From an uncultured Chloroflexia bacterium (lineage in GTDB: Bacteria; Chloroflexota; Limnocylindria; Limnocylindrales; CSP1-4), in NCBI GenBank assembly GCA_963766735.1, contig CAVYBU010000007.1, positions 288,001 through 352,000 of the forward strand: DNA of 64,000 bases, in the 5' to 3' direction. The notes beneath the pieces are model-generated. The model ran no database searches and was not told the origin of the DNA. It worked only from the letters and a program-made list of their open reading frames with translations. This document shows, in pieces, positions 5,172 to 17,277 of the stretch. A program made the position numbers and the translations under genes. Each line of letters starts with the position of its first letter. Positions within the stretch are counted from its first letter, which is position 1.

Positions 5172-8100
5172 TCAGGCCAGCTGGAGGTCGATCACACCCT
5201 CGCCGACGCGACGTCGCACCTCGGCGACCAGCTCCGCGTCGTAGGCCACACCCCGCAGCTCCATCGGCAACGCGCTGCCCCCCGGGGCCGGCACGTGCAC
5301 GATCACGCGCGTCGCGCCAGGCCTCTCCCTCAGCACGCCCTTGAACGCCTGCATCGCGGCCAGGACGCGATCCGTCGCGGCACCGCGGGCGAAGCGGATG
5401 TTGAGCACGGCACCGGGAGCCGCCTCAACGGGACGTGACGGGGCATCGTTGGCCGCCGCGGCGCGGGAGCGCTGTTCGTCGGGGAGCGGCGGCGACTCGG
5501 GCTCGTCGGTTCCCTCGAGCCCCGTCGCTCCCGGCGGCTCCGCGTATGTTGGGACGGGCTCGGCCGGACGGAGCGGGCCACCGCCGCGGCCGTTGGCGCC
5601 GCTGCCGTTGCCGTTGTCCCGGGCGCCGTTCCCGTTTCCGCCACCGCGGGCGCCGACGCCGCTCCCCCCTGGAGCTCCCCCACCCCGTCGCGCCGCCCGC
5701 TTGTCCAGCGAGCCGACGTCCTTCGCGAACGCCTCCGGCCCGCGATCCGCGACGGCATCCCAGTCCCAGACCGAGTCGGCCAGCAGCGAGGCCTCGTCGC
5801 CCCGGTGGTCCACGCGTCCGGCCACCAGCAGGATCGCGCCGTCGCGCCAGGTCCCCACCGTCTGCTCGTACGTCTTCGGGAAGACCACCACCTCGAGAGT
5901 CCCCTGCAGGTCCTCGAGCGTGACGACCGCCATCATGCTCTTCGACTTGGTGAGCACCGAGCGGATCCCGGTCACGATCCCGCCCAGGACCACGCGCTGA
6001 CCGTCGAGCGACTCGTCCTTGAGGTCTCCGGAGTACGCCGTCACGAACTGCCCGACGCGTTCCGCCACCTCGCCCATCGGGTGATCCGAGAGGTAGAGCC
6101 CCATGAGCTCCTTCTCCCAGCGGAGACGCTCCCTGACCGGGGTCTCCGGCGTGGACGGCAGCGGCCGCTCCAGCGTGGAGGACTCGTCGCCGGTCATGTC
6201 GAACAGCGACGTCTGGCCGCTGATCCGGTCGCGCTGCGCGGCCTGGCCCGCGGCGAGCGCGTCGTCCAGGCCCATCAGGATCTGGGCCGGGTGCCCGAGA
6301 ACGTTGAGCGCTCCGACCTTGGCGAGTGACTCCAGCACCTTGCGGTTGGTGAGACGCAGGTCAACACGAGTGCAGAAGTCCGTCAGCGAGCGGAACTCAC
6401 CGCCCTCCTCGCGGGCCTTGATGATCGACTCGATCGCGCCCTCACCGACGTTCTTGACCGCCAGCAGCCCGAACCGGATGGCGTCGCCCTCGACCGTGAA
6501 CCCCAGCCCCGACTCGTGGACGTCCGGCGTGCGCACCTCGATGCCCAGGCGCCGGCACTCGGCGATCGCGGCCGCGACCTTCTCCGCGTTGTCCCGGAAC
6601 GCGGAGAGCACGGACGTCATGTACTCGACGGTGTAGTTCGCCTTGAGGTATGCGGTCTGGTACGCGATCAGCCCGTAGCAGGTCGCGTGGGCCTTGTTGA
6701 ACCCGTACCGCTCGAAGGGCTCGAACGCCTTGAACACCGCGTCGATGGTCTTTGCCGGCACGCCGCGCTCCGCGGCCCGCTCGACGAAGGTCTCCCGCAT
6801 CGACTGGAGCACCGCCCGCTTCTTCTTGCGGATGGCGTAGCCCAGCATGTCCGCCTCGGGCCCCGAGAAGCCGCCCAGGGCGATGGCGGCGGACATGATG
6901 TCCTCCTGGTACACGAAGATCCCGTACGTCCGGTTGAGGAACGGCTCCAGGAGCGGGTGGAGATACGTCACCGGCTCCTGGCCGTGCTTGCGCCGGATGT
7001 AGGCCGGGATGTTGTCCATCGGGCCCGGGCGGTAGAGCGCCACCATGGCCGCAAGGTCGAAGACGGACGTCGGCTGGAGCTCCTTGACGTAGCGGCGCAT
7101 CCCCGCGGACTCAAGCTGGAAGACACCCGTTGTCTCACCCGACGCGAGGAGATCGAAGGTCTTCGAATCGTCGAGCGGGATGTTGTCCAGGTCCACCGCG
7201 ATGTCGCGGTCCTCCTTGATCAGGTCCACGGCCTTGCGCAGGATCGTGAGGTTGGACAGGCCCAGGAAGTCGAACTTGAGCAGGCCCAGCGCCTCGATGC
7301 CGTGCATCTCGTACTGGGTCATCAGCGCGTCCGAGTTGGTCGCCTTCTGGAGCGGCATCAGCTCCGTCAGCGGCTCCCGCGAGATCACGACCCCGGCGGC
7401 GTGCGTGGACGCGTTCCGGGCCACACCCTCCAGTTGCTTCGCGAGCCCGATCAGCTTCCCGATCTGCGGATCCCCGTCGTGCATCTCCTTGAGCTGCGGG
7501 GAGAGCTGCAGTGCCTCCTCCAGCTTGATGCCCAGCTGGTTCGGGACCGCCTTGGCGATCCGGTCCACGTCCCCGTAGGACATCCCCAGCACGCGCCCGA
7601 CGTCCCGGATCGCGGCGCGGGCGAGCATCGTGCCGAAGGTGATGATCTGCGCGACGTGGTCCTGGCCGTACTTGCGGCTGACGTAGTTGATGACCTCGTC
7701 CCGGCGCTCGTCCTCGAAGTCCACGTCGATGTCCGGCATCGTCACGCGGTCCGGGTTGAGGAACCGCTCGAAGGGGAGGTCGTAGTGGAGCGGGTCCACC
7801 GGCGTGATGCCCAGCGTGTAGGTGACGATGGACCCGGGCGCCGACCCCCTGCAGGTGGTGGCGATCCCTTCCTGGCGTGCGAACCGCACGAAGTCCGCCA
7901 CGATCAGGAAGTAGCCGGCGTAGCCCATGGAGATGATCACGCCCAGCTCGTAGTCCAGGCGCTGCTGGAGGGCCGGGGTGATCACCCCGTAACGGCGGAC
8001 GAGGCCCGCCTCGCACTCCTTGCGCAGCCAGGTCTCCACCGTCTCGCCGTCGGGCACCGGGAAGTGCGGGATCCGGAGGTCGCCCAGCGGCAGCTTCAGG

Positions 8101-8930
8101 TCGACCATCTCGGCGATGCGCCGGGAGTTGAGCAGGGCATCCCGCTGGTCCGGGAACAGCCGCTGCATCTCGGCGGCCGTCTTGAGGTAGAACTCCTGGC
8201 CCTCGAACCGCATCCGGTTCTGGGTGTCGATGTTGTTCCCGGTACCGACGCAGAGCAGGACGTCATGTGCCTCGTGCTGCTCCGGGTGGACGTAGTGCAG
8301 GTCATTGGTGACGACCAGCGGCAGGCCGGTCTCCGGCGCCAGGCGGAGCAGCTGCTCGTTCAGGCGACGCTGCTCCGGGATGCCGTGGTCCTGGAGCTCC
8401 AGGAAGAAGCGGTCCTTGCCCAGGATGTCGCCGTACTCGCCCGCCAGCTTGCGGGCGAGCTCCCAGTCCTCGGCCTCGAGCGCCTTGGGGATCTCGCCGC
8501 CCAGGCAGGCGCTGAGGCCCACCAGACCCTGGCTGTGCTTCGCGAGGTGCTCGCGGTCGATGCGGGGCTTGTAGTAGTAGCCGTCGATGTGGGCGTCCGT
8601 GACCAGGCGGCACAGGTTCTGGTAGCCGGTCATGTCGGTCGCCAGCAGGACCAGGTGGAAGGGCTGGCTGTCGGCCTTGCCCTCCTTGTCGGTCATCGAC
8701 CGCCGCGCGACGTAGGTCTCCACCCCGATGATCGGCCTGATGCCCGCCTTGGTCGCCGCCTGGTAGAAAGCGACCGAGCCGTAGAGGGCTCCGTGGTCAG
8801 TGACGGCGAGCGAATCGAACCCGTGGCGGCCGGCTGTATCGACGAGGTCGGTGATCCGGCCGAGCCCGTCGAGCAGGCTGAACTCCGAGTGGGTGTGGAG
8901 GTGGACGAAGTCGTTCGGGGCGATGGTCAC
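5172..8930 (-). CDS. dnaE: DNA polymerase III alpha subunit
   Basis: PHP motif 'FVHLHTHSEFSLLDG', catalytic 'MPDIDVDF', 'GFNKAH', OB fold; GTG start at 8930. Confidence 0.97.
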   Translation of the reverse strand: MTIAPNDFVHLHTHSEFSLLDGLGRITDLVDTAGRHGFDSLAVTDHGALYGSVAFYQAATKAGIRPIIGVETYVARRSMTDKEGKADSQPFHLVLLATDMTGYQNLCRLVTDAHIDGYYYKPRIDREHLAKHSQGLVGLSACLGGEIPKALEAEDWELARKLAGEYGDILGKDRFFLELQDHGIPEQRRLNEQLLRLAPETGLPLVVTNDLHYVHPEQHEAHDVLLCVGTGNNIDTQNRMRFEGQEFYLKTAAEMQRLFPDQRDALLNSRRIAEMVDLKLPLGDLRIPHFPVPDGETVETWLRKECEAGLVRRYGVITPALQQRLDYELGVIISMGYAGYFLIVADFVRFARQEGIATTCRGSAPGSIVTYTLGITPVDPLHYDLPFERFLNPDRVTMPDIDVDFEDERRDEVINYVSRKYGQDHVAQIITFGTMLARAAIRDVGRVLGMSYGDVDRIAKAVPNQLGIKLEEALQLSPQLKEMHDGDPQIGKLIGLAKQLEGVARNASTHAAGVVISREPLTELMPLQKATNSDALMTQYEMHGIEALGLLKFDFLGLSNLTILRKAVDLIKEDRDIAVDLDNIPLDDSKTFDLLASGETTGVFQLESAGMRRYVKELQPTSVFDLAAMVALYRPGPMDNIPAYIRRKHGQEPVTYLHPLLEPFLNRTYGIFVYQEDIMSAAIALGGFSGPEADMLGYAIRKKKRAVLQSMRETFVERAAERGVPAKTIDAVFKAFEPFERYGFNKAHATCYGLIAYQTAYLKANYTVEYMTSVLSAFRDNAEKVAAAIAECRRLGIEVRTPDVHESGLGFTVEGDAIRFGLLAVKNVGEGAIESIIKAREEGGEFRSLTDFCTRVDLRLTNRKVLESLAKVGALNVLGHPAQILMGLDDALAAGQAAQRDRISGQTSLFDMTGDESSTLERPLPSTPETPVRERLRWEKELMGLYLSDHPMGEVAERVGQFVTAYSGDLKDESLDGQRVVLGGIVTGIRSVLTKSKSMMAVVTLEDLQGTLEVVVFPKTYEQTVGTWRDGAILLVAGRVDHRGDEASLLADSVWDWDAVADRGPEAFAKDVGSLDKRAARRGGGAPGGSGVGARGGGNGNGARDNGNGSGANGRGGGPLRPAEPVPTYAEPPGATGLEGTDEPESPPLPDEQRSRAAAANDAPSRPVEAAPGAVLNIRFARGAATDRVLAAMQAFKGVLRERPGATRVIVHVPAPGGSALPMELRGVAYDAELVAEVRRRVGEGVIDLQLA

Positions 8931-9030
8931 GGGACGTCCATGGTAGCCCGGCGGCGGGCACCGGGCCTGGTGCCCGGCGCGGCGCCGGCCTGATGCCATG
9001 GACCGGAGCAGCCTGCGCCACAATGTCACG

Positions 9031-9945
9031 ATGCGCCCGACACTGCGGTTCCAGGTCCTCTGTCTTCCCAACGTCCCCTGGAGAGTGCTGAAGGAGCGGT
9101 TCGTCCGGCTCGAGCAGCTCGGCATCGAGGTGGCGGCGCTGCCGGACCATTTCGTCGACTGGACGAATCCGCCGAGCCCCTGGTTCGAGTCCTGGACGGC
9201 GCTCACAGGCCTGGCTGCCGCCACGACAAGCATCCGGCTGTCCAGCTGTGTGACGCAGATCCCGTTCCGGAACCCGGCGATGTTCGCCCGCCAGGCGATG
9301 ACGCTCGACCACATCTCGCAGGGCAGGCTCGAGATCGGCCTTGGGACCGGCCTCGCGGGCGACCCGTCCTACGCCATGATCGGCGTCCCGGACTGGGAGC
9401 CCAAGGAACGCGTCGGGCGGCTCGTGGAATACGTCGAGATCGTGGATCGACTGCTGCGCGATGAGGTCACGTCGTTCGGCGGCGACTTCTACAGGGTGAA
9501 CGGGGCGATCATGAGCCCGCGACCCGTCCAGTCGCCGCGGCCCCCGATCTCGGTTGCGGCCTTGGGGCCCGTGATGATGCGGCATGCCGCGCGGCTTGCG
9601 GACACCTGGAACAGCCTGTCGTTCCTCGAATCGTTCGACGCCCAGTTGGAAGAGACGCAGCGTCGCTCCGAGTCGATGAACGAGTACTGCGATGCGCTCG
9701 GGCGCGAGCCCGCGACGCTTCGGCGTTCCTACACGATGTACGACGCCAAGGCCCGCCCACGGGGGGGCTGGTACGAGTACTACGACTCGGTGGATCGCTT
9801 CGAGGAGATGGCGGGTCGGATCATCGACCTCGGGATGGACGAGATCGTGCTCTACTACCCGCCGGACGAGCGGCAGCTGCCGATATTCGAGCGGATCGCC
9901 GCGGACGTGCTGCCCCGACTCCGGGGGCGCCGGGCTGGCGCCTGA
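9031..9945 (+). CDS. LLM-class flavin-dependent oxidoreductase
   Basis: 'PDHF', 'FRNPAMFARQAMTLDHISQGRLEIGLG', 'AARLADTWN'. Confidence 0.9.
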   Translation: MRPTLRFQVLCLPNVPWRVLKERFVRLEQLGIEVAALPDHFVDWTNPPSPWFESWTALTGLAAATTSIRLSSCVTQIPFRNPAMFARQAMTLDHISQGRLEIGLGTGLAGDPSYAMIGVPDWEPKERVGRLVEYVEIVDRLLRDEVTSFGGDFYRVNGAIMSPRPVQSPRPPISVAALGPVMMRHAARLADTWNSLSFLESFDAQLEETQRRSESMNEYCDALGREPATLRRSYTMYDAKARPRGGWYEYYDSVDRFEEMAGRIIDLGMDEIVLYYPPDERQLPIFERIAADVLPRLRGRRAGA

Positions 9946-9992
9946 CGGATCGGCTCCGGCCACCGAAGACCCGTCCACCGGCTGGGCGCGCC

Positions 9993-10330
9993 TTGGACAT
10001 CGACCGGCTGGACGAGCTCGCTTCGAAGTCGACCGGTTGGCAGAAGGCGAACCGATTGCGGGTCGCCGCCCTGGCCCGCGCCGCCGCCGGAAACCTGGAA
10101 GCGGCGGAGACGCAGGCTCGAGCGGCAGTGGATGGGATCGCGAGCACGGATCTGGTCTTGTTCCATGCGGATGCCCAGCTGACCCCGGGCGACGTGCTGC
10201 GCTCTGCCGGTCGTCCTGCCGAGGAGGGTGAGGCCTTCCGGGAGGCACTCGATCCCTAACGGCAGAAGGGCAGCCTCGTGGGGGTCCAGACGGTGGAGGC
10301 CCGGCTGGCCGGCTGGCCGGACTCACGGCA
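9993..10330 (+). pseudogene. Fragment resembling the C-terminal TPR tail of AAA/TPR (cyclase-type) regulators, with in-frame stop
   Basis: 'ALARAAAGNLEAAETQARAAV...TDLVLFHADA...EALDP*RQKGSLVGVQTVEARL'; no N-terminal domains present. Confidence 0.45.
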
Positions 10331-10473
10331 GGGCCTGTCGTCGAGGTGACAGTTGGATGGTCACAATGTGTCTTTACCCCGGACGCGACAAGGCCCATTC
10401 TGTGCAGCACAAGCGGCGAAGCGCTTGATCCCGAACCAGAAGGGTCGGGACGGCCAGACCAGAGGAGCGTCCC

Positions 10474-11190
10474 ATGACGACCGAGATGATCCCTGAGGGC
10501 GGCGAGTCCATCGCCCGCCACGCCGACGAGAACGACGTCGAGGGCCACAGGCTGGCCAAGACCGGCGCGATCCCGGACGAGAACGACGTCGAGGGCCACA
10601 GGCTGGCCAAGACCGGCGCGATCCCGGACGAGAACGACGTCGAGGGCCACAGGCTGGCCAAGACCGGCGCGATCCCGGACGAGGACGACGTCGAGGGCCA
10701 CAGGCTGGCCAAGACCGGCGCGATCCCGGACGAGGACGACGTCGAGGGCCACAGGCTGGCCAAGAGCGGCGCGACCCCGGACGAGGACGACGTCGAGGGC
10801 CACAGGCTGGCCAAGACCGGCGCGACCCCGGACGAGGACGACGTCGAGGGCCACAGGCTGGCCAAGAGCGGCGCGACCCCGGACGAGGACGACGTCGAGG
10901 GCCACAGGCTGGCCAAGAGCGGCGCGACCCCGGACGAGGACGACGTCGAGGGCCACAGGCTGGCCAAGACCGGCGCGACCCCGGACGAGGACGACGTCGA
11001 GGGCCACAGGCTGGCCAAGAGCGGCGCGACCCCGGACGAGGACGACGTCGAGGGCCACAGCATCGGCTACGGGAGCCCGAGGTTGGCCGGCGATGTCTAC
11101 AAGGTGCGCGAGCGGGAGATCCAGCGAGGAATGGCCCGCGGCTCGATCCTCCGCGACGCCAAGATGGTGATCAAGCGCAGGAAGCCCTGA
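10474..11190 (+). CDS. Tandem-repeat protein with 11 DE[ND]DVEGH motifs (candidate multi-core precursor or protease substrate)
   Basis: AGAGGAG RBS; 17-aa leader, 10 full 17-aa repeats, one 8-aa partial repeat, 43-aa basic tail. Confidence 0.85.
   Translation: MTTEMIPEGGESIARHADENDVEGHRLAKTGAIPDENDVEGHRLAKTGAIPDENDVEGHRLAKTGAIPDEDDVEGHRLAKTGAIPDEDDVEGHRLAKSGATPDEDDVEGHRLAKTGATPDEDDVEGHRLAKSGATPDEDDVEGHRLAKSGATPDEDDVEGHRLAKTGATPDEDDVEGHRLAKSGATPDEDDVEGHSIGYGSPRLAGDVYKVREREIQRGMARGSILRDAKMVIKRRKP
10525..11058 (+). repeat. 51-bp tandem repeat, about 10.5 copies
   Basis: Unit GACGAG[A/G]ACGACGTCGAGGGCCACAGGCTGGCCAAGA[C/G]CGGCGCGA[T/C]CCCG. Confidence 0.95.
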
Positions 11191-11211
11191 CGTTCGTCCA
11201 TGGGTTCCTCC

Positions 11212-11247
11212 GAACACGGGCGGAGTCGCAAGACCCCGCCCGTGTTC
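11212..11247 (+). terminator. Strong stem-loop after the repeat gene
   Basis: GAACACGGGCGG...CCGCCCGTGTTC 12-bp stem; no long U tract. Confidence 0.65.
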
Positions 11248-11374
11248 TGCGTCTGCCGCCTGGACGGCAACGGCCCGGGTGCATCGCCGGCCCATACAAG
11301 CGTTGCGCAGCGGTCTGCGCGCCGCTAGCATTCGGCGCGGTATCCGGCGCCACGGACTGAGGAAGGGACCGAAC

Positions 11375-12079
11375 GTGACAGCGACCGCGCGGACCACCGC
11401 CGTCGATGCGCTGCGGCGCTGCGCCCTCTTCTCACGGGTAGACGATCAAACGCTGGCCGTCTGCATCAACTCGCTCCGGACACGCCAGTATCGGCGCAAC
11501 GAGACGATCTTCCACCAGGGAGACGCGGGAGACTCCCTTTACATCATCGAGGTGGGTACCGTGAAGATCGTGCTGCCCTCGCCGGAAGGTGAAGGCGAAG
11601 CCATCATCGCGACGTTGGGCCCGGGTGACTTCTTCGGCGAGCTGGCGTTGCTCGACGGCGCCGAACGCTCGGCCACTGCGATCGCCCATCAGGCGACGAC
11701 AGCCCTCGTCCTCCGGCGGGACGCATTCGGCCAGCTGATCGACACCGTTCCCGCGCTGCGCCACGACCTCCTGGCAGGGTTGGCCGCTGAGCTGCGCCGG
11801 CTGACCCACCACGTTGGGGAGCTCTACTTCCTCGACCTGCCCGGCAGGCTGGCGCTCCTGATCGTGCGCCTCGCCCGCGACGTGGATCCCAAGCCGACCG
11901 GACCCGTGACGCTCAACTGGAGCTTCTCCCAGTCGGAGCTCGCGGGGATGATTGGCGGGACGCGACAGACAGTGAACCGGCTCCTCGGCGAATTCACGGC
12001 CGAGGGCATGATCAAGATCGAGAACGACACGCTCATCGTGCCCGACGTGGACCGCCTCGAGCGGGCGGCCGCACGCTGA
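11375..12079 (+). CDS. Crp/Fnr-family transcriptional regulator
   Basis: cNMP-binding 'IFHQGD...GDFFGELALLDGAERSATA' and HTH 'SQSELAGMIGGTRQTVNR'. Confidence 0.93.
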   Translation: MTATARTTAVDALRRCALFSRVDDQTLAVCINSLRTRQYRRNETIFHQGDAGDSLYIIEVGTVKIVLPSPEGEGEAIIATLGPGDFFGELALLDGAERSATAIAHQATTALVLRRDAFGQLIDTVPALRHDLLAGLAAELRRLTHHVGELYFLDLPGRLALLIVRLARDVDPKPTGPVTLNWSFSQSELAGMIGGTRQTVNRLLGEFTAEGMIKIENDTLIVPDVDRLERAAAR

Positions 12080-12098
12080 GCGGCCGCGGCCAGATCCG

Positions 12099-12926
12099 AT
12101 GACCGAGCCAGAAGCCGGCCCGCGGCGTCGCTCACCGGCGTTCGATCGGGATGCGCGTGCGGCCCTCGAGGCGATCGGCCGCCGCGCCGAGATCGCGCGC
12201 CGGCTCGAGCTGGGGAGCGCCGATGCCGTCCTTCGATCCGTGGTGGAGGCGGCGGTAGCGATGTTCGAAGCGGAGGCGGCATCCATCGCGCTCTACGAGC
12301 CGGCCCGCAACCTGCTCGTCTTCCGGGTCGCGGCGGGGGTGCAGGGCCAGGGCGTCGTTGGACTCGAGATCACGCCTGACCAGGGTCTCGTGGGGTACGT
12401 CTTCTCGAGCGGGCAGGCGCTCGCGATCGCGGACGTTCGAGCGGATCCCCGCTTCGGCCGGAGCTTCGCCGAACGGACGGAGTACGTACCGCGCAGCATC
12501 GTGGCGGTGCCGCTGCTGGACGAGCGCGGCACGCTCGGCGTGCTCGAGGTGCTCGACAAGCGGAGCGAGGCGAGCTTCTCCCTCCGGGATGTCGAGCTGG
12601 CGGGCGTCTTCGCGCGGCAGGCGACGGTCGCCATCCGGTCCAGCCGCGTCGAACGCGAGACGGCGATGCTGCTGCGATCCGTGATCGGTGCGCTCGCCGG
12701 CGGCGAGGCACCCACGGACGGCGTTGAGGCGCTCGTTGCCGCCGCGCTCGCCGACATTGATGACCCGGACGACCCGCTGTGGCCGCTCGTCGAGCAGGTC
12801 GCAGCGCTCCGCGGGTCCGGTCCAGAGCAGCGAGAGCTGCTCGGCGCCTTGCTCAACGTCCTCGTTCGCCAGACCGAACGTGGCCACGGGCGACGCGGTG
12901 GACGCCTTCGCGCGCCCGGCAGATGA
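12099..12926 (+). CDS. Stand-alone GAF domain protein
   Basis: 'GLVGYVFSSGQ...DVRADPRF...SIVAVPL...GVLEVLDK...FSLRDVEL'. Confidence 0.88.
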   Translation: MTEPEAGPRRRSPAFDRDARAALEAIGRRAEIARRLELGSADAVLRSVVEAAVAMFEAEAASIALYEPARNLLVFRVAAGVQGQGVVGLEITPDQGLVGYVFSSGQALAIADVRADPRFGRSFAERTEYVPRSIVAVPLLDERGTLGVLEVLDKRSEASFSLRDVELAGVFARQATVAIRSSRVERETAMLLRSVIGALAGGEAPTDGVEALVAAALADIDDPDDPLWPLVEQVAALRGSGPEQRELLGALLNVLVRQTERGHGRRGGRLRAPGR

Positions 12927-13750
12927 GCGATCAGCTCCTCCCCGCCTGGAGCGAACCGTTCGTCGGCGCTGGGCGGGACACGTTGCGCCGGCTCCCGCCC
13001 CTTGGGATCCTGGACCGCAACTGGGCGATCGGCGGCAGCGACGGGAGCGGTGTCACGGTCGCGATCATCGACTCCGGCGTAGAGCGGGATCATCCCGCCG
13101 TCGGTGGGAAGCTGGTCCGTAGCGTCAGGGTGGAGCTGGCCGCAGACCCGGACGACGACCCGGTCGTGCTTGAGGACGAGGAAGCACTGGACGTGGTGGG
13201 CCACGGGACTGCGTGCGCCGGGATCATCCACGCCATTGCGCCCGGCGCCGACCTCGTGTCGGTCCGTGTCCTTGGGCCGGACAACCGCGGCAAGGGGATC
13301 GTCTTTGCGGCCGGCGTCGACTGGGCAATTGACCAGGGTGTCGGGGTGATGAACCTGTCGCTCTCCTCCAAGAGCGAGGCGCTCTTCGGTACCTTCCACG
13401 ACCTGGCGGATCGGGCCTACTTTGCGAATGCGCTCCTGGTCTGCGCGGCCAACAACGTCCCCGGCAACAGCTACCCGTCGCTCTTCGCCTCGGTCGTCTC
13501 TGTCGCCGCCCACGACCTCCCCGAACCCGCAGCGTGGTTCTACAACCCGCGCCCGCCGGTGGAGTTCGGGGCGTTCGGCCTGGACGTGGACGTCGCGTGG
13601 CGCGACGGGAGCCGGATCACGGCAACCGGCAACAGCTTCGCGGCACCCCACATCGCGGGGTACGCGACCCTCATCCGGGCGAAGCACCCGGACGTGACCC
13701 CGTTCGAGGTGAAGGCCATCCTCGCCGCGATCGCCACGGAGACCCGGTAG
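12923..13750 (+). CDS. S8 (subtilisin-like) serine peptidase, no signal peptide or obvious prodomain
   Basis: Triad motifs 'VAIIDSG', 'GHGTACAG', 'GNSFAAPH'; ATGA overlap with the GAF gene stop. Confidence 0.92.
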   Translation: MSDQLLPAWSEPFVGAGRDTLRRLPPLGILDRNWAIGGSDGSGVTVAIIDSGVERDHPAVGGKLVRSVRVELAADPDDDPVVLEDEEALDVVGHGTACAGIIHAIAPGADLVSVRVLGPDNRGKGIVFAAGVDWAIDQGVGVMNLSLSSKSEALFGTFHDLADRAYFANALLVCAANNVPGNSYPSLFASVVSVAAHDLPEPAAWFYNPRPPVEFGAFGLDVDVAWRDGSRITATGNSFAAPHIAGYATLIRAKHPDVTPFEVKAILAAIATETR

Positions 13751-13824
13751 GCGTCGCCCCTCACGGACCCCACGGCCGGTCGCCCGCCGGGGATGCTGCG
13801 GGCAACCGCCATCGGCGGGAGCGC

Positions 13825-14583
13825 CTACTGCGCCGTCCAGCCCCCGTCGACCGGCAGGATCGTGCCCGTCACCAGGCCCGACGCACGGGACGACAGAAAG
13901 ACCACCGCGGCCGCGACGTCGGCTGTCGTGCCGACCCGGCCGACGGGGATCCGGTCGAGGACCTCGGCCAGGAAGACCGGGTCGTCGAGCCGCTCGGCCG
14001 TGCCGGGCGTGTAGATGAAGGTGGGCGCGATCGCGTTGACCGTCACGCCGTGCGGCGCCCACTCGAGGGCGAGGACCTTGGTCAGGAGGTTCACGCCACC
14101 CTTGCTCGCGGAGTAGACCGCGTGGCGCCGGATGCCGACGAGCCCGGCCTGCGAGCTGAGGTTGACGACGCGTCCGTAGCCCCTCTCCACCATGTGGCGG
14201 CCGACGGCCTGACTGGTGAAGAACAGGCCCTTGAGGTTGACGTTCATCATCCCGTCCCAGTCGGCCTCGGTCACGTCGATCGCGTCGTGGTTCGCCCCCA
14301 GGCCCGCGTTGTTGACCAGGATGTCGATCCGGCCGTGCGTCGCGACCGCGGCGTCGACCGCCGCGCGAGTACCCCCGACATCGGTGACGTCGAGCCGGAT
14401 CGGCTCCACGCGACCCCCGTCCGGCGCGGCCCAGACGACATCGGTCGCGTCCGTGTCACGAATGCCGGCGAGGACGTGCGCGCCGCAGGCCGCCAGGGCC
14501 CGCGCGAGGTCACGGCCGATCCCCCGCCCCGCGCCGGTCACCAGGGCAACCTGCCCGGTCAGATCAAAGTCCGGTCGCTGCAT
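13825..14583 (-). CDS. Short-chain dehydrogenase/reductase (SDR)
   Basis: TGAGRGIG, NNAG and YSASK motifs. Confidence 0.92.
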   Translation of the reverse strand: MQRPDFDLTGQVALVTGAGRGIGRDLARALAACGAHVLAGIRDTDATDVVWAAPDGGRVEPIRLDVTDVGGTRAAVDAAVATHGRIDILVNNAGLGANHDAIDVTEADWDGMMNVNLKGLFFTSQAVGRHMVERGYGRVVNLSSQAGLVGIRRHAVYSASKGGVNLLTKVLALEWAPHGVTVNAIAPTFIYTPGTAERLDDPVFLAEVLDRIPVGRVGTTADVAAAVVFLSSRASGLVTGTILPVDGGWTAQ

Positions 14584-14650
14584 CGAGCGTTCCTCCGTCT
14601 CGCCCACGACATGGGTCGCACACACCAGATTGTGGGGCCTGGCGGCTCCC

Positions 14651-15478
14651 TCAGCCAACGCCGCGCGCGTCCAGCACCCGGCCCCAGTGGAACAGCCGAA
14701 CCGCGACCAGGACCCCGAATGCCGCCATCACCAGCATCGCCGCCGCGGCAATCGACGCGTCCAGGGCGCCGCCCTGGAACTCACCGTAGACAACCAGGGG
14801 GAGCGTCTGGGTCCGGCCCATCACGTTGCCGGCAAACATGATCGTGGCGCCGAACTCCCCCAGCGCCCGGGCCCAGCACATCGTCAGCCCCCCGGCCAGG
14901 GCGGCGCCGGCCAGCGGCGTTGTGATCGTGCGGAACAGCTGGCGCTCCGACGCACCGTCAACCCTGGCCGCATCCTCCAGGTCCCGATCCACGCCCGCGA
15001 GCCCTGTCCGGGCGGACCGGATGAAGAACGGCGCCGACACGAATGTCTGGGCGAGGACCACGGCGACCATCGTGAACGACACGGAGATGCCGAGCTCGTG
15101 GAGCGGGGCCCCAAGCAGCCCCAGCCGTCCGAAGACCAGCAGCAGCGCCAGGCCGGCGACCGATGGCGGCAGCACGATCGGCAGGTCCACGATCGCCTCC
15201 ACGAGCCCTTTGCCCCGGAACCGCCATCGGGCCAGCACGAAGGCGAGCGGCAATCCCATGACCACGGTGATGGTCAGGCTGATCGCGGTCGTCACGAGGC
15301 TCAGGACGAGCGCGTCCAGGACCACCGGCGACCCGAGAGCGTGGACGAGCGATCCGTCGAGGATCGCCCGTGCCACGAGGGTGACGACGGGCAGACCCAG
15401 GAACAGCGCGAACAGAGCCGCGAGAGCCGCGAGCGTGCGCGTGCCCCAGCCTCCCCGGACCTGCGTCATGTGGGTCAT
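14651..15478 (-). CDS. modB: Molybdate ABC transporter permease
   Basis: 'DLPIVLPPSVAG', 'ARALGEFGATIMFAGN'. Confidence 0.9.
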   Translation of the reverse strand: MTHMTQVRGGWGTRTLAALAALFALFLGLPVVTLVARAILDGSLVHALGSPVVLDALVLSLVTTAISLTITVVMGLPLAFVLARWRFRGKGLVEAIVDLPIVLPPSVAGLALLLVFGRLGLLGAPLHELGISVSFTMVAVVLAQTFVSAPFFIRSARTGLAGVDRDLEDAARVDGASERQLFRTITTPLAGAALAGGLTMCWARALGEFGATIMFAGNVMGRTQTLPLVVYGEFQGGALDASIAAAAMLVMAAFGVLVAVRLFHWGRVLDARGVG

Positions 15479-16284
15479 GGGACGCGCAGGAACCCGGATT
15501 CCGCGAGGATCGCCTGGCCCTCCGGCCCGGCGAGCCAGTCAAGGAACGCCGTGGCGGCCGCGGTATGCCGGGATGAGCTGACCACGACACCAGCGTATGT
15601 CGCCCTGACGTTGGCCGACTCGGGCAGGTCGATCGTGGACACCGCCTTCGACGCGCGGGCGTCAGTGACGTACGCGATGCCGGCATCTCCCTCGCCCAGC
15701 TCGATCTTCGCGACGATCGACCTGGCGTTGTCCTCCTTGGACACGATGTTGGCGGCGTAGGCGGACGCGAAGTCCGCGGGGTAGCCCGCCTCCCGCGAGA
15801 GGTTGTCCACGAGCCGGGTCGCGTACGTCGTGATCGGCACCCCATCACCCGCGGCGATGACCTTCACGCCCGCCATGGCGAGGTCCGCCGGCGTCCGGAT
15901 CCCGGCGGGGTTGTCTTCGGGCACGATGACCGTGAGCCCATTGCCGGCGAACGGGATCGGGATCCCGGAGGCGAAGCCGGCGTCGACGAGCTTCTGCGGG
16001 TTCCTGGTGTCCGCGGACAGGAAGACGTCCGCGGGGGCTCCCTGCTCGATCTGGGTCTCGAGCGTGGTCGAGGAGTCCGTCGCGATCGTCAGCGTGGTGC
16101 CCGGCTTCGCCGCCTCGTATGCCGTGCGGACCTGCTCCAGAACGCCCTTCAGCGATGCGGCGCCGTAGATGGTCAGGCTGGCCTCTGTCGGGCCGAGGCT
16201 CCCATCCGGAGCAGCGGCACCCCCGGAGCAGGCTGCGATGACGAGAGCGAGGGCGGCGGCCCCAACTCCGAGACCGGACTTCAC
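15475..16284 (-). CDS. modA: Molybdate ABC transporter substrate-binding lipoprotein
   Basis: Lipobox IAAC; 'AASLK', 'QIEQGAPADVFLSAD', 'GEGDAGIAYVTD'. Confidence 0.9.
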   Translation of the reverse strand: MKSGLGVGAAALALVIAACSGGAAAPDGSLGPTEASLTIYGAASLKGVLEQVRTAYEAAKPGTTLTIATDSSTTLETQIEQGAPADVFLSADTRNPQKLVDAGFASGIPIPFAGNGLTVIVPEDNPAGIRTPADLAMAGVKVIAAGDGVPITTYATRLVDNLSREAGYPADFASAYAANIVSKEDNARSIVAKIELGEGDAGIAYVTDARASKAVSTIDLPESANVRATYAGVVVSSSRHTAAATAFLDWLAGPEGQAILAESGFLRVP

Positions 16285-16724
16285 GCGCGCGGTTCCCTCG
16301 AAGACGGGATCTCGACGATGACGTTGGTCGACTTGACGACACACACTGCCTCATCGCCAACCTTGAGACCCAGCTCCGCGACGGCCTCGGCGGTCATGAG
16401 GCTGACGAGGCGATGCGGACCGGCGATGACCTCCACGACGGCCGCCACGCGGTCGACCTCCACGCGGGTCACGATGCCTGCGAACCTGTTGCGAGCCGAT
16501 TGGGCAACGATCGGGCGGTCGGTGGCCACCCTCCGGCGCTCGTCCAGGAGCCTCGAGATCTCCTCAATTGCGACCAGGCGCTGTCCACCCTCGGAACGCT
16601 CCATCGCGAGCCGGCCTTCGGCCTCCCAGCGGCGCAGCGTCTCGACGGAGACGCCCAGCATCTCCGCCGCCTGGCCGACGCGGACCTGGGTGCCATGGGC
16701 CTCGACAATCTTGCTCATACCCAT
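16281..16724 (-). CDS. MerR-type HTH plus TOBE molybdate-binding regulator
   Basis: 'AAEMLGVSVETLRRW' HTH; 'SARNRFAG...ELGLKVGD...VKST' TOBE. Confidence 0.85.
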   Translation of the reverse strand: MGMSKIVEAHGTQVRVGQAAEMLGVSVETLRRWEAEGRLAMERSEGGQRLVAIEEISRLLDERRRVATDRPIVAQSARNRFAGIVTRVEVDRVAAVVEVIAGPHRLVSLMTAEAVAELGLKVGDEAVCVVKSTNVIVEIPSSREPRA

Positions 16725-16732
16725 GAAGTATC

Positions 16733-16764
16733 GCCAATATGGGCGTACATGTCGAAGTATTGGC
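16733..16764. promoter_or_regulatory. Inverted repeat GCCAATA-N18-TATTGGC upstream of the mod operon (putative operator)
   Basis: AT-rich inverted repeat immediately upstream of the regulator start. Confidence 0.4.
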
Positions 16765-16877
16765 CCAAGACGTGAGGTTACGTGAACCTCGCGCGGGGTT
16801 GTCCAACTGGTGATTGCGGCGCGAGTGCCCCTCGGCGTGGTCAGCGTGTCGAAGCCGACCCGGCTACGCTGCGGGAC

Positions 16878-17277
16878 ATGGATGGGCCGATCGACGACAC
16901 CGCGTTCGAGGACTGGGTCTTCGAGGCGATCGACGCCCTTCCCGCTGCCTTCCAGGAGCGCCTCGGCAGCGTCGCCATCGTCATCGAGGAGTGGCCCACC
17001 GCAGGCGCAGCTGGCCTCGGTGGGTGCCGGTGGCCTGTACGGCCTGTACCAGGGCGTGCCGCGCTCCCTGCCCGGCGCAGACCATGCGGCGAGCCCGTCC
17101 AAGATCACGATCTTCCGCGGCCAGCTCGAGCGCCACTACCGCACGCCCCAGGCGCTTCGGGCCAAGGTGATCGACACCGTCCACCACGAGATCGCCCATC
17201 ACTTCGGCATCTCCGACGCCAGGCTGCACGAACTCGCGGCCGAGCACGATGACGGGGCCGGCCGACACGCGCGCTAG
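16878..17277 (+). CDS. Zincin-like metallopeptidase family protein (frameshift near 17000, likely sequencing error)
   Basis: N-half 'FEDWVFEAIDALP...IEEWP' and C-half 'GLYQGVP...HEIAHHFGISD' lie in different frames. Confidence 0.8.

Follow-up and report, generated by a model that had tools for sequence, protein, structure and literature searches.

A mobile subtilase cassette of Limnocylindria with VEGH-tagged proteins, a GAF protein and a candidate Crp-family operator

Subtilases (peptidase family S8) dedicated to the cutting of a tagged precursor are known from two kinds of pathway, namely those of the RiPPs (peptides made on the ribosome and modified after translation) and those of the pro-hormones. 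Among the latter, Kex2 and furin are eukaryotic enzymes of the secretory pathway that carry a P-domain and act at dibasic sites, and tandem-repeat precursors, such as yeast α-factor and the fungal repeat proteins, are diced in this way at a short motif that ends each unit. In the cyanobactin pathway, PatA acts in the cytoplasm on the precursor PatE, which carries repeated recognition sequences, and according to one account it cuts after G(L/V)E(A/P)S (PMC10885120). The same account describes ElxP, of the LanP type, as a cytoplasmic protease whose recognition motif consists of Asp or Glu at -5, Leu or Val at -4, any two residues, and Gln at -1 (PMC10885120). A third enzyme, QhpE, removes the leader of QhpC during the maturation of quinohemoprotein amine dehydrogenase and is reported to be cytoplasmic and of single-turnover action (PMC7876137). 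Here, we describe a four-gene cassette located at positions 10474-13750 of a 64,000-nucleotide stretch of DNA (hereafter, the window) from an uncultured bacterium of the Chloroflexota class Limnocylindria (assembly GCA_963766735.1, contig CAVYBU010000007.1, positions 288,001 to 352,000), which encodes a repeat protein with the recurrent tag VEGH (REP), a Crp-family regulator, a stand-alone GAF protein and a minimal S8 subtilase.

The host genome is a metagenome-assembled genome (MAG) of 35 contigs and 3.6 Mb, 94% complete, and all four co-oriented genes that a first-pass annotation had read from the letters of the window are present in its table of open reading frames (ORFs). We think it fairly probable that they form a mobile cassette of a Limnocylindria type under the control of cyclic AMP (cAMP), in which the Crp-family regulator governs the gene of the VEGH protein and the GAF-partnered subtilase cuts this protein after the His of each VEGH. 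The computed basis of this reading comprises the anatomy of the cassette, the association of its genes, their co-occurrence among genomes, a conserved operator and hairpin, mobility and a modelled docking, from which we infer cleavage, its scissile bond, the factor that binds the palindrome, the ligand of the GAF protein and the role of the products. The features of the locus are as follows (aa, amino acids; cNMP, cyclic nucleoside monophosphate).

9993-10259, + strand: 3' remnant (88 codons) of a gene for a Zn-ribbon/class III cyclase/AAA_16/TPR protein; aligns with the C-terminus of the upstream gene of two relatives (genomes G091 and G086) and has no Pfam hit itself
10336-10351, no strand: palindrome TGTCGTCGAGGTGACA (5-6-5), candidate Crp-family operator, conserved in 9 aligned regions upstream of class A genes (the class of REP, see below)
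10373-10401, + strand: promoter-like elements TTTACC (10373-10378) and CATTCT (10396-10401), 17 bp apart, recognized by conservation only
10474-11190, + strand: REP, a class A VEGH protein of 238 aa, with 11 DVEGH tags and a conserved basic tail of 43 aa with net charge +8
10525-11060, + strand: 51-bp tandem array (Tandem Repeats Finder: period 51, 10.5 copies, 98% matches, no indels, score 995)
11212-11247, + strand: GC-rich hairpin without a U tract, at 22 nt from the stop codon of REP; may act on transcription into crp as a leaky terminator or an attenuator
11375-12079, + strand: Crp-family regulator, 234 aa, with cNMP_binding and HTH_Crp_2 domains; the longest ORF begins at 11279
12099-12926, + strand: stand-alone GAF protein, 275 aa, with an N-terminal helix, a GAF fold and a C-terminal four-helix extension
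12923-13750, + strand: S8 subtilase, 275 aa, without leader or prodomain (PF00082, 101.1 bits against a cutoff of 21.8), overlapping the GAF gene by ATGA

When compared with the described systems, the cassette would appear to work like PatA, ElxP, QhpE and Kex2, in so far as a dedicated protease faces a tagged precursor, but with other partners and another control. The analogy with cyanobactins drawn in the first-pass annotation holds at the functional level, and the tag follows the pattern of the PatA site (hydrophobic P4, Glu at P3, small P2); by sequence it does not hold, since the PatA/PatG model TIGR03895 reaches only 17.2 bits against a cutoff of 421. Moreover, the cassette differs from cyanobactin clusters in having no gene for a heterocyclase, macrocyclase, DUF protein or oxidase and no core/recognition-sequence II architecture, its partners being Crp, GAF and a cyclase; likewise, no cyanobactin tailoring genes were seen in the flanks annotated for the window and three relatives. 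The form D(-5)-V/T(-4)-E-G-H/Q(-1) resembles the ElxP motif, whereas the cassette lacks a lanthionine synthetase or other tailoring enzyme, repeats its sites up to 11-13 times, and has a dedicated GAF partner and putative cNMP control. With QhpE, the subtilase shares its small, leaderless and cytoplasmic character and its location beside the sole substrate, and the QhpE model NF049966 is indeed its second-best NCBIfam match, but the equivalog cutoff is missed (91.8 bits against 165), the window contains none of qhpABCDFG, its neighbours being a luciferase-like monooxygenase, SDR and ModAB instead, and the presumed substrate is a repeat protein rather than an enzyme subunit. Unlike Kex2 and furin, the subtilase is bacterial, cytoplasmic and of a minimal form, and its presumed site is acidic, with His as the last residue. 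The best NCBIfam model is that of the mycosins (TIGR03921), again below its cutoff (109.5 bits against 278.75), from which the protein differs in having neither a signal peptide nor a membrane anchor and no ESX genes nearby. Since no tailoring enzyme is conserved, the other neighbours varying from locus to locus (DapA/DapB, PAD, PFOR, M24, LLM, SDR), the cassette is no RiPP cluster in the usual sense of a precursor with a conserved modifying enzyme. PADLOC 2.0 recognized no defence system, only a generic subtilase match (9e-17) and a likeness of the cNMP domain to Pycsar effectors, the GAF protein and REP giving nothing. The first-pass annotation had not recognized a named system, and in agreement with this no family model or paper was found for the cassette; a literature search on the DVEGH/VEGH motif or on a module of GAF, subtilisin and repeat protein returned nothing relevant, with most subscription journals lying outside its coverage.

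The evidence that ties the protease to the tag comes, above all, from gene neighbourhoods. In a broad survey with one genome per species, a search with the S8 alignment gave 597 matching stretches, 580 of which encode an S8 relative, and the best 80 loci were examined; most of these come from MAGs of Limnocylindria and Chloroflexota, and a few from records under the labels Anaerolineales, Gaiellaceae, Actinomycetota or Methylomirabilota. The GAF gene lies directly 5' of the S8 gene in 75 of the 80 loci, and a Crp ortholog (40-89% identity) 5' of GAF in 55. A frame with [VT]EGH is found between -2.6 and +1.8 kb of S8 in 57 loci, 40 of them with at least two motifs. When the rest of the same loci is taken as an internal control, the contrast is marked: 82 motif frames, 47 of them multi-motif, occur in the 384 kb near S8, as against 28, only two of them multi-motif, in the remaining 688 kb. 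With a generalized motif, 65 of the 80 loci become positive, or 49 of the 57 that have full flanks. The VEGH genes occupy three positions, namely 5' of crp (30 loci), between crp and GAF (12) and convergent, 3' of S8 (42), and the linkage has thus survived rearrangements across three gene orders. The first-pass annotation had named a want of neighbourhood association between S8/GAF homologs and DVEGH-motif ORFs as the result that would speak against it, and the scan came out for the association.

A narrower sample, consisting of 18 S8 loci from the genus of the window, gives the same picture: GAF is directly 5' of S8 in 17, a VEGH-type small ORF stands beside S8 in 17 (12 with the strict pattern and five with a variant residue before the motif), and a close Crp ortholog (51-63% identical) is 5' of GAF in about ten. 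Among 70 genomes of this genus, S8 was found in 36, and a VEGH profile built from class B proteins has matches in exactly these 36 and in none of the 34 in which S8 was not found; in one of the former (G027) the profile match is on another contig and contains a stop codon, and a class A gene lies beside its S8. Seven of the 70 genomes have class A proteins, and it is in just these seven that S8 reaches its highest identity to that of the window, so that the substrate class goes with the lineage of the protease. Database relatives of the S8 protein run into the thousands; the best 120 of them (73-100% identity, 231-299 aa), from 'Candidatus Limnocylindrales' or Chloroflexota MAGs, bear at most the name 'subtilisin family serine protease'. 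A divergent second S8-GAF pair was also seen at L040 (G018:C13) 9569-10656, where S8 is 48% identical, GAF lies downstream, and a doubtful motif ORF, DADFEGH, stands beside it.

The repeat protein itself is as the first-pass annotation described it, a protein of 238 aa made mostly of near-identical 17-aa units, in that the 51-bp DNA repeat has 98% matches and the protein has 11 VEGH motifs. Its frame can be regarded as coding because the GC content is 0.98 at third and 0.45 at second codon positions and because GAGGAG stands 8 nt 5' of the ATG. The repeat is no compositional accident either, since REP is the only frame of the 3.6-Mb genome with several [DE][VT]EGH motifs, the 14 other frames having one motif each, evidently by chance. 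The 17-mer unit reads RLAK[TS]GA[IT]PDE[ND]DVEGH, and a cut after every VEGH would yield a head of 25 aa with a net charge of -6, the ten 17-mers, at -2 or -3 apiece, and a tail of 43 aa (+8) that starts with SIGYGSP. VEGH-tagged proteins form no described family: NCBIfam and PADLOC scans of REP and a Pfam scan of four VEGH-protein relatives gave no match, and a search of the ESM Atlas with the VEGH protein returned a sole match, an unnamed Chloroflexota cluster at 0.80, a score at the level of a lead. An assignment of REP to the Ca-binding domain of Binary_toxB was set aside, as the match (20.9 bits against a cutoff of 25) has no domain stretch and reads as acidic low complexity.

Proteins with the tag fall into at least three classes. 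Class A genes, such as REP, lie 5' of crp on the same strand in 30 of the 80 loci as well as in the window, and their products end, after the last VEGH, in a basic tail some 45 aa long (conserved as ..P.LAR.LARA.ERD[IV]QR...EAKR..K in 14 aligned relatives). Databases contain 224 members of this family, 30-107 aa in length; every one of them bears the name 'hypothetical', and none has a Pfam domain. Because some members have only a single VEGH, it is the tail rather than the repeat that is the constant part of class A. Class B genes are convergent, just 3' of S8, in 42 loci, and encode a conserved LPGTGGD head and a conserved terminus of the form ..GPTTQGEF.KR.P.DNPHGER or ..FGxLRSPxSRGE; class C genes, between crp and GAF in 12 loci, encode repeats only. 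Classes A and B are both present in 15 loci. The earlier view of the repeat protein falls short in that REP represents one of at least three classes and that repeats are not the conserved part of its own.

The only feature that all VEGH proteins share is the tag itself, preceded by further acidic residues. In a profile of 215 motifs, P5 is Asp in 192, P4 is Val or Thr, P3 is Glu in 194, P2 is Gly in 198, and P1 is His in 190 and Gln in 25, with variants such as DTEGQ, EVEAH and EVAAH in more distant loci. In contrast to tail and protease, which are conserved, the spacers between the tags vary even between near kin: in G091, whose S8 is 91% identical, the unit is MRKAPGATPDEDDVEGH, and in G086 (89%) it is quite different. 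The class A arrays of these two genomes (L139 3296-4227, - strand, and L140 3242-4152, - strand, respectively) are split over at least two reading frames, whether through genuine frameshifts or through errors in the assembly of nearly identical repeats. Two loci, L108 (about 1.4 kb 3' of the S8 start, - strand) and L125 (+1611, + strand), differ in what comes after the tag, namely a conserved segment, SLRFPS..DA..F.R.LL, and a stretch of transmembrane character, so that the tag may serve larger proteins as well. Another unusual array is found at L127:3047-3706 (+), in a record labelled as an Actinomycetota MAG, where 13 DTEGH motifs accompany a His-rich unit, GHHHKNFADAEDDDTEGH, repeated 12 times; the frame lies 4.3-5 kb 5' of a GAF-S8 pair with 58% identity to the window in S8, and the composition of its unit hints at metal binding.

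From a structural point of view, the protease is a compact subtilase; in a sequence comparison with solved structures, mature subtilisin BPN' comes closest (1.5e-33). The intact Asp/His/Ser triad claimed earlier was recovered as D50, H94 and S238, together with N178 of the oxyanion hole: over 16 aligned relatives H94, N178 and S238 are invariant and D50 is present in every sequence covering the position, and among 56 tabulated loci D50, H94 and N178 are unchanged in all and S238 in 55, with one gap. The absence of a signal peptide and of a recognizable prodomain is likewise borne out, as there is no hydrophobic stretch and the conserved N-terminus LPAWSEPF leaves a prodomain no room; in none of the four cassette proteins was there a hydrophobic 19-mer with a Kyte-Doolittle value above 1.4, as would be expected of a signal or transmembrane segment. 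The start codon at 12923 overlaps the stop of the GAF gene as ATGA, in keeping with the translational coupling of the two genes that had been noted. Long open frames of 529-570 aa at first sight suggestive of a GAF-S8 fusion turned out to be differing frames or out-of-frame, Arg-rich read-through.

The binding of the tag was modelled by combining the S8 alignment with that of the last class A repeat plus tail (61 aa, 14 rows). The complex scored 0.68 (runs of 0.51, 0.68 and 0.71), while the best of three controls scored 0.00, on a scale whose mark is reached by 116 of 157 solved complexes and by two of 215 mismatched pairs; at least 51% of contacts agree between the runs, and the pLDDT of the partner is at least 46. 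The co-folding of S8 with the repeat peptide proposed in the first-pass annotation thus gave a model that supports, short of proof, binding of the tag by the protease. Only residues 2-4 and 12-22 of the partner touch the enzyme, and the latter segment, E12 to Y22 (EDDVEGHSIGY), lies in the cleft. In the model, V15 contacts residues 117, 122, 124, 125, 128 and 147-149, E16 contacts N121 and R122, G17 contacts D50, H94, S238 and L117, and H18 contacts L147. With the SLSS segment at 146-149 mapped onto what we take to be its counterpart, residues 125-128 of BPN', this arrangement would correspond to the canonical register, that is, Val at P4, Glu at P3, Gly at P2 and His at P1 in subsites S4-S1, and would place the scissile bond after the His. 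The claim that DVEGH is the recognition site of S8 has therefore gained a modelled position in the substrate cleft in canonical register, while cutting itself would follow only as a prediction from it.

A possible trace of coadaptation is found at P1. The four loci with Gln at this position all have N120 and Thr or Ala at 123, whereas those with His have Asp or Glu at 120 (49/49) and Gly at 123 (48/49); similarly, S177 is present in all four Gln loci as against Asn in the His group (49/49), and also in four sister loci in which no motif was detected. All Gln loci belong to one clade of eight tips. This covariation of protease and substrate thus amounts to about one evolutionary event and is suggestive only.

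As regards the control of the cassette, the regulator is, as had been stated, a member of the Crp family, with a cNMP_binding domain (PF00027, 90.1 bits, 9.4e-26) followed by a Crp-type helix-turn-helix (PF13545 HTH_Crp_2, 55.8 bits, 4.5e-15; PF00325, 25.9 bits). Its phosphate-binding cassette is retained (FGELALLDGAERSATA), and the equivalog model of CRP proper (NF008732) is missed by a wide interval (96.9 bits against 266). The likely start is the GTG at 11375, after GGAAGGG. The GAF protein is a genuine stand-alone member of its family (PF01590, 70.6 bits against a cutoff of 22.4); its model has a pLDDT of 86 and 304 matches in the PDB at E <= 0.001, of which every listed one is a GAF domain. 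The top structural neighbours include the cAMP- or cGMP-binding 5w10 (cAMP), 1ykd, 1mc0 and 2zmf, at 21-30% identity, with GAF domains for haem or other ligands close behind, so that the modelled fold resembles those of cNMP-binding GAFs and the ligand is possibly a cNMP. The C-terminal extension was also considered as a trans-acting, I9-like prodomain, an idea abandoned since its model is all-helical, with four helices at 162-265.

Upstream of REP, the palindrome has the consensus TGTCG-N6-CGACA, and its looser form TGTC-N8-GACA occurs nine times in the whole 3.6-Mb genome. It is found near S8 in 55 of the 80 loci, nearly always at those distances from S8 at which VEGH genes begin, whatever their class or strand. 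The -35-like CTTTACC is invariant in the nine aligned upstream regions and is followed 17 bp on by CATNNT with a conserved CAT; the centre of the palindrome lies about 64 bp 5' of the transcription start inferred from these elements. The 5-6-5 layout is that of Crp/FNR operators, and the position fits an activating site of the class I type. Simple scans for σ70 promoters and for terminators with a T tract found no site in 10200-13900. Between REP and crp, the hairpin is unusually stable (ΔG -43.6 kcal/mol, z -4.19, with none of 200 shuffles as stable), and in 12 of 14 relatives, as read by eye from their folds, the class A gene also has a GC-rich hairpin, of another sequence, after its stop codon. 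By analogy with the structural genes of lantibiotics, the hairpin may serve to stop part of the transcripts and so to maintain an excess of substrate.

The closest relatives suggest where the nucleotide would originate. In G091 and G086, the gene directly 5' of the class A gene encodes a protein of 1052 aa with a Zn-ribbon, a class III cyclase domain (Guanylate_cyc, 81.6 bits), AAA_16 (91 bits) and TPR_12. Since the 88-codon ORF at 9993-10259 aligns with the C-terminus of this protein, the window holds a truncated copy of a five-gene module; its DNA similarity to G091 begins at 10035. The genome has at least ten other genes with a cyclase domain, none of them in the window.

The cassette is, moreover, a mobile accessory unit. 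In the sister genome G026, the flanking monooxygenase and SDR genes have 92-93% DNA identity to those of the window, and the 3,838 bp at 9983-13820 are replaced by an unrelated segment of 1,064 bp with a lipoprotein ORF; neither S8 nor a VEGH gene is present in that genome. In G091, the cassette lies in another genomic context, far from SDR homologs. A DNA contig of sequencing run X1 joins position 10307 to 13739 via nine other letters, skipping 3,431 bp, and agrees with the arrangement of G026; with a depth of 2 and a side of 20 nt it is too weak to count alone.

The first-pass annotation had also stated that no exporter is present. This is true of the window, but in 26 of the 80 loci a transporter with MFS (MFS_1/MFS_3) and cNMP_binding domains is encoded within 4.5 kb of S8. 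The host genome has its ortholog, 77% identical, on another contig (C27:82142-83944, - strand, corresponding to L138:6137-8095), alone beside an M24 peptidase gene, at a site that is syntenic with the place of MFS, GAF, S8 and a class B gene in other members of the genus. Likewise, the proposed gating of the system by a cNMP has gained from the Crp protein, the Crp-type palindrome 5' of the VEGH genes, the class III cyclase gene of the closest relatives and the MFS::cNMP proteins of many others, whereas for the GAF protein a cNMP ligand is suggested by its fold only. Taken as a whole, the earlier interpretation is partly supported, namely in its association, its modelled docking and its cNMP wiring; cleavage and the GAF ligand stay predictions.

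On these grounds, the following mechanism can be proposed. In the ancestral form, the cyclase-AAA-TPR protein would make the nucleotide; since the window has no cyclase gene, the nucleotide must there come, if the mechanism holds, from the other cyclases of the genome. The Crp-family regulator would bind TGTCG-N6-CGACA and thereby control REP, and the hairpin would let part of the transcription pass into crp, GAF and S8, so that substrate is made in excess over enzyme. The protease is predicted to recognize the acidic tag [DE][DE]D-V-E-G-H, with Val in S4, the P3 Glu against Arg122, Gly at P2 and His in S1, and to cut after the His, which would turn REP into the 25-aa head, ten acidic 17-mers and the basic tail. 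Finally, the GAF protein, whose synthesis always accompanies that of the protease, would be the regulatory partner of the latter and might license cutting upon binding a small ligand, possibly a cNMP. As to the fragments, they may be signals exported via the MFS protein, the basic tail may be the active part that is freed from an acidic pro-region, or the whole may act as a buffer or pseudo-substrate.

Several observations weigh against this mechanism, every step of which rests on computation. Complexes of subtilisins with peptides have been solved in abundance, so that the docking result may in part be a memory of the family, and VEGH, as the sole invariant stretch in the partner alignment, may have steered the docking register. 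The palindrome is taken to be bound by the Crp of the cassette, but another factor may bind it instead, and the canonical TGTGA-N6-TCACA box, allowing up to two mismatches, was not found in 9900-13800 nor clearly enriched by position in the 80 loci; the hairpin has no U tract. Eight of the 57 loci with full flanks have no motif ORF under the patterns used, and the strict motif is absent in 23 of the 80. The independent events behind the co-occurrence are fewer than 36, since the genomes of a genus are kin and many are incomplete. Finally, hypervariable spacers fit a mere linker as well as a peptide product, and class A proteins may have a Crp-linked role without the protease, because a second class A-like gene of the host genome adjoins a crp gene with neither S8 nor GAF nearby. 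This gene (C3:329382-329534, - strand, corresponding to L137:6383-6535) encodes the motif KDTEGS followed by the conserved basic tail; it lies directly 5' of a second gene of the Crp family, between genes for cyclase/AAA_16 and TPR proteins, and its neighbours are at L137:4883-6073 (-) and L137:7257-9233 (+).

These last points bear on a reading, unlikely in our view, in which the VEGH proteins would serve to regulate the protease or Crp, or to buffer them as pseudo-substrates, with the array occupying the S8 site or setting a timer, the true targets elsewhere and the basic tail acting on Crp or on nucleic acid. A motif docked in the active-site cleft, as modelled, fits an inhibitor as well as a substrate, the spacers may be linkers, class A genes are always directly 5' of crp, the S8-less island on C3 included, and the tail is the conserved part of their products. 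A disordered peptide productively bound in a subtilase cleft is, however, expected to be cut; furthermore, the tag precedes diverse conserved C-terminal parts (the basic tail, ends of the FGxLRSPxSRGE or NPHGER type, a transmembrane segment), which gives it the look of a portable pro-sequence, and many relatives have an adjacent exporter. The latter would find its place if the products were exported peptide signals of a pheromone- or bacteriocin-like kind, with VEGH as a cut site of leader or spacer, the cNMP-gated MFS protein as the pump, and the copy in the window served by the ortholog elsewhere in the genome. We regard this as quite unlikely, although the transporter genes near S8, the ortholog on C27, the differences of repeat units among species and the patchy distribution in the genus are all as it would predict, as is the hairpin after the structural gene; lantibiotic structural genes are likewise followed by one. 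No receptor was identified, 54 of the 80 loci, the window included, have no adjacent transporter, and the products are highly charged, with no modification enzymes; to our knowledge, MFS pumps do not export peptides of this size. In any case, such export would be an extension of tag cutting under cAMP control and is compatible with it.

The association of the genes could, lastly, be one of co-regulation only, the VEGH proteins being acidic, His-bearing disordered proteins (metal-binding proteins or stress hydrophilins) of a cAMP regulon and S8 a general cytoplasmic protease, or, in a variant, the cassette could be an anti-phage island with a STAND-like cyclase as sensor and the protease as effector. 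The His-rich units of some relatives, such as those of L127, the sub-threshold acidic match of REP to a Ca-binding model, the variable insertion site and the patchiness in the genus, the STAND-like cyclase-AAA_16-TPR architecture upstream in relatives and the cNMP domain resembling that of Pycsar effectors are in line with one or the other version. Nevertheless, we judge it very unlikely: a strict five-residue motif with a hydrophobic P4 and a small P2 looks like a protease site, a pattern for which a metal site has no need, co-occurrence in 36 of 36 genomes with linkage across three gene orders exceeds what co-regulation would give, the PADLOC search recognized no system beyond the generic subtilase match, and the annotated flanks showed no genes of phages or of defence systems.

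Should cleavage at VEGH occur as predicted for the cAMP-controlled cassette, it would represent a new, compact and sequence-specific pair of cytoplasmic protease and tag, and the first case of bacterial cAMP signalling feeding into the site-specific proteolysis of a polyprotein; among dedicated proteases that cut repeated tags, none was found paired with a GAF protein, a Crp, a cyclase and a cNMP-gated transporter. A more far-reaching and rather doubtful version may be pictured as a bacterial 'pro-hormone convertase', in which a STAND-type cyclase senses a cue and raises cAMP, Crp turns on the VEGH polyprotein, and the GAF-licensed subtilase cuts after each VEGH His and so releases many copies of a species-specific 17-mer and one conserved cationic 43-aa peptide as signals or effectors, exported where the cNMP-gated MFS protein is present. 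If this were true, it would amount to a cyclic-nucleotide-gated peptide communication peculiar to an abundant uncultured lineage of soils and fresh waters, similar to the Kex2/α-factor system but built from other parts. The module is common in Limnocylindria, which are abundant in soils and fresh waters, uncultured and of barely known physiology, and as a system of four proteins for which both a cleavage site and an operator are predicted, it offers an entry point for biochemistry.

Parts of crp, GAF, S8 and the 3' end of REP have matches of 90-99% among contigs of two sediment metatranscriptome runs (X19 and X20); these matches were not counted as evidence, because contigs cannot show transcription, strand or ends and carry-over of DNA is possible. 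As for the surroundings of the cassette in the window, the 5' side holds the luciferase-like monooxygenase gene and a long DnaE-like ORF at 5172-9314, the true start of which probably lies downstream of the one listed. On the 3' side, 13825-17108 of the - strand carries the SDR gene, ORFs similar to ModB and ModA, so named by reading their translations, and one further ORF.

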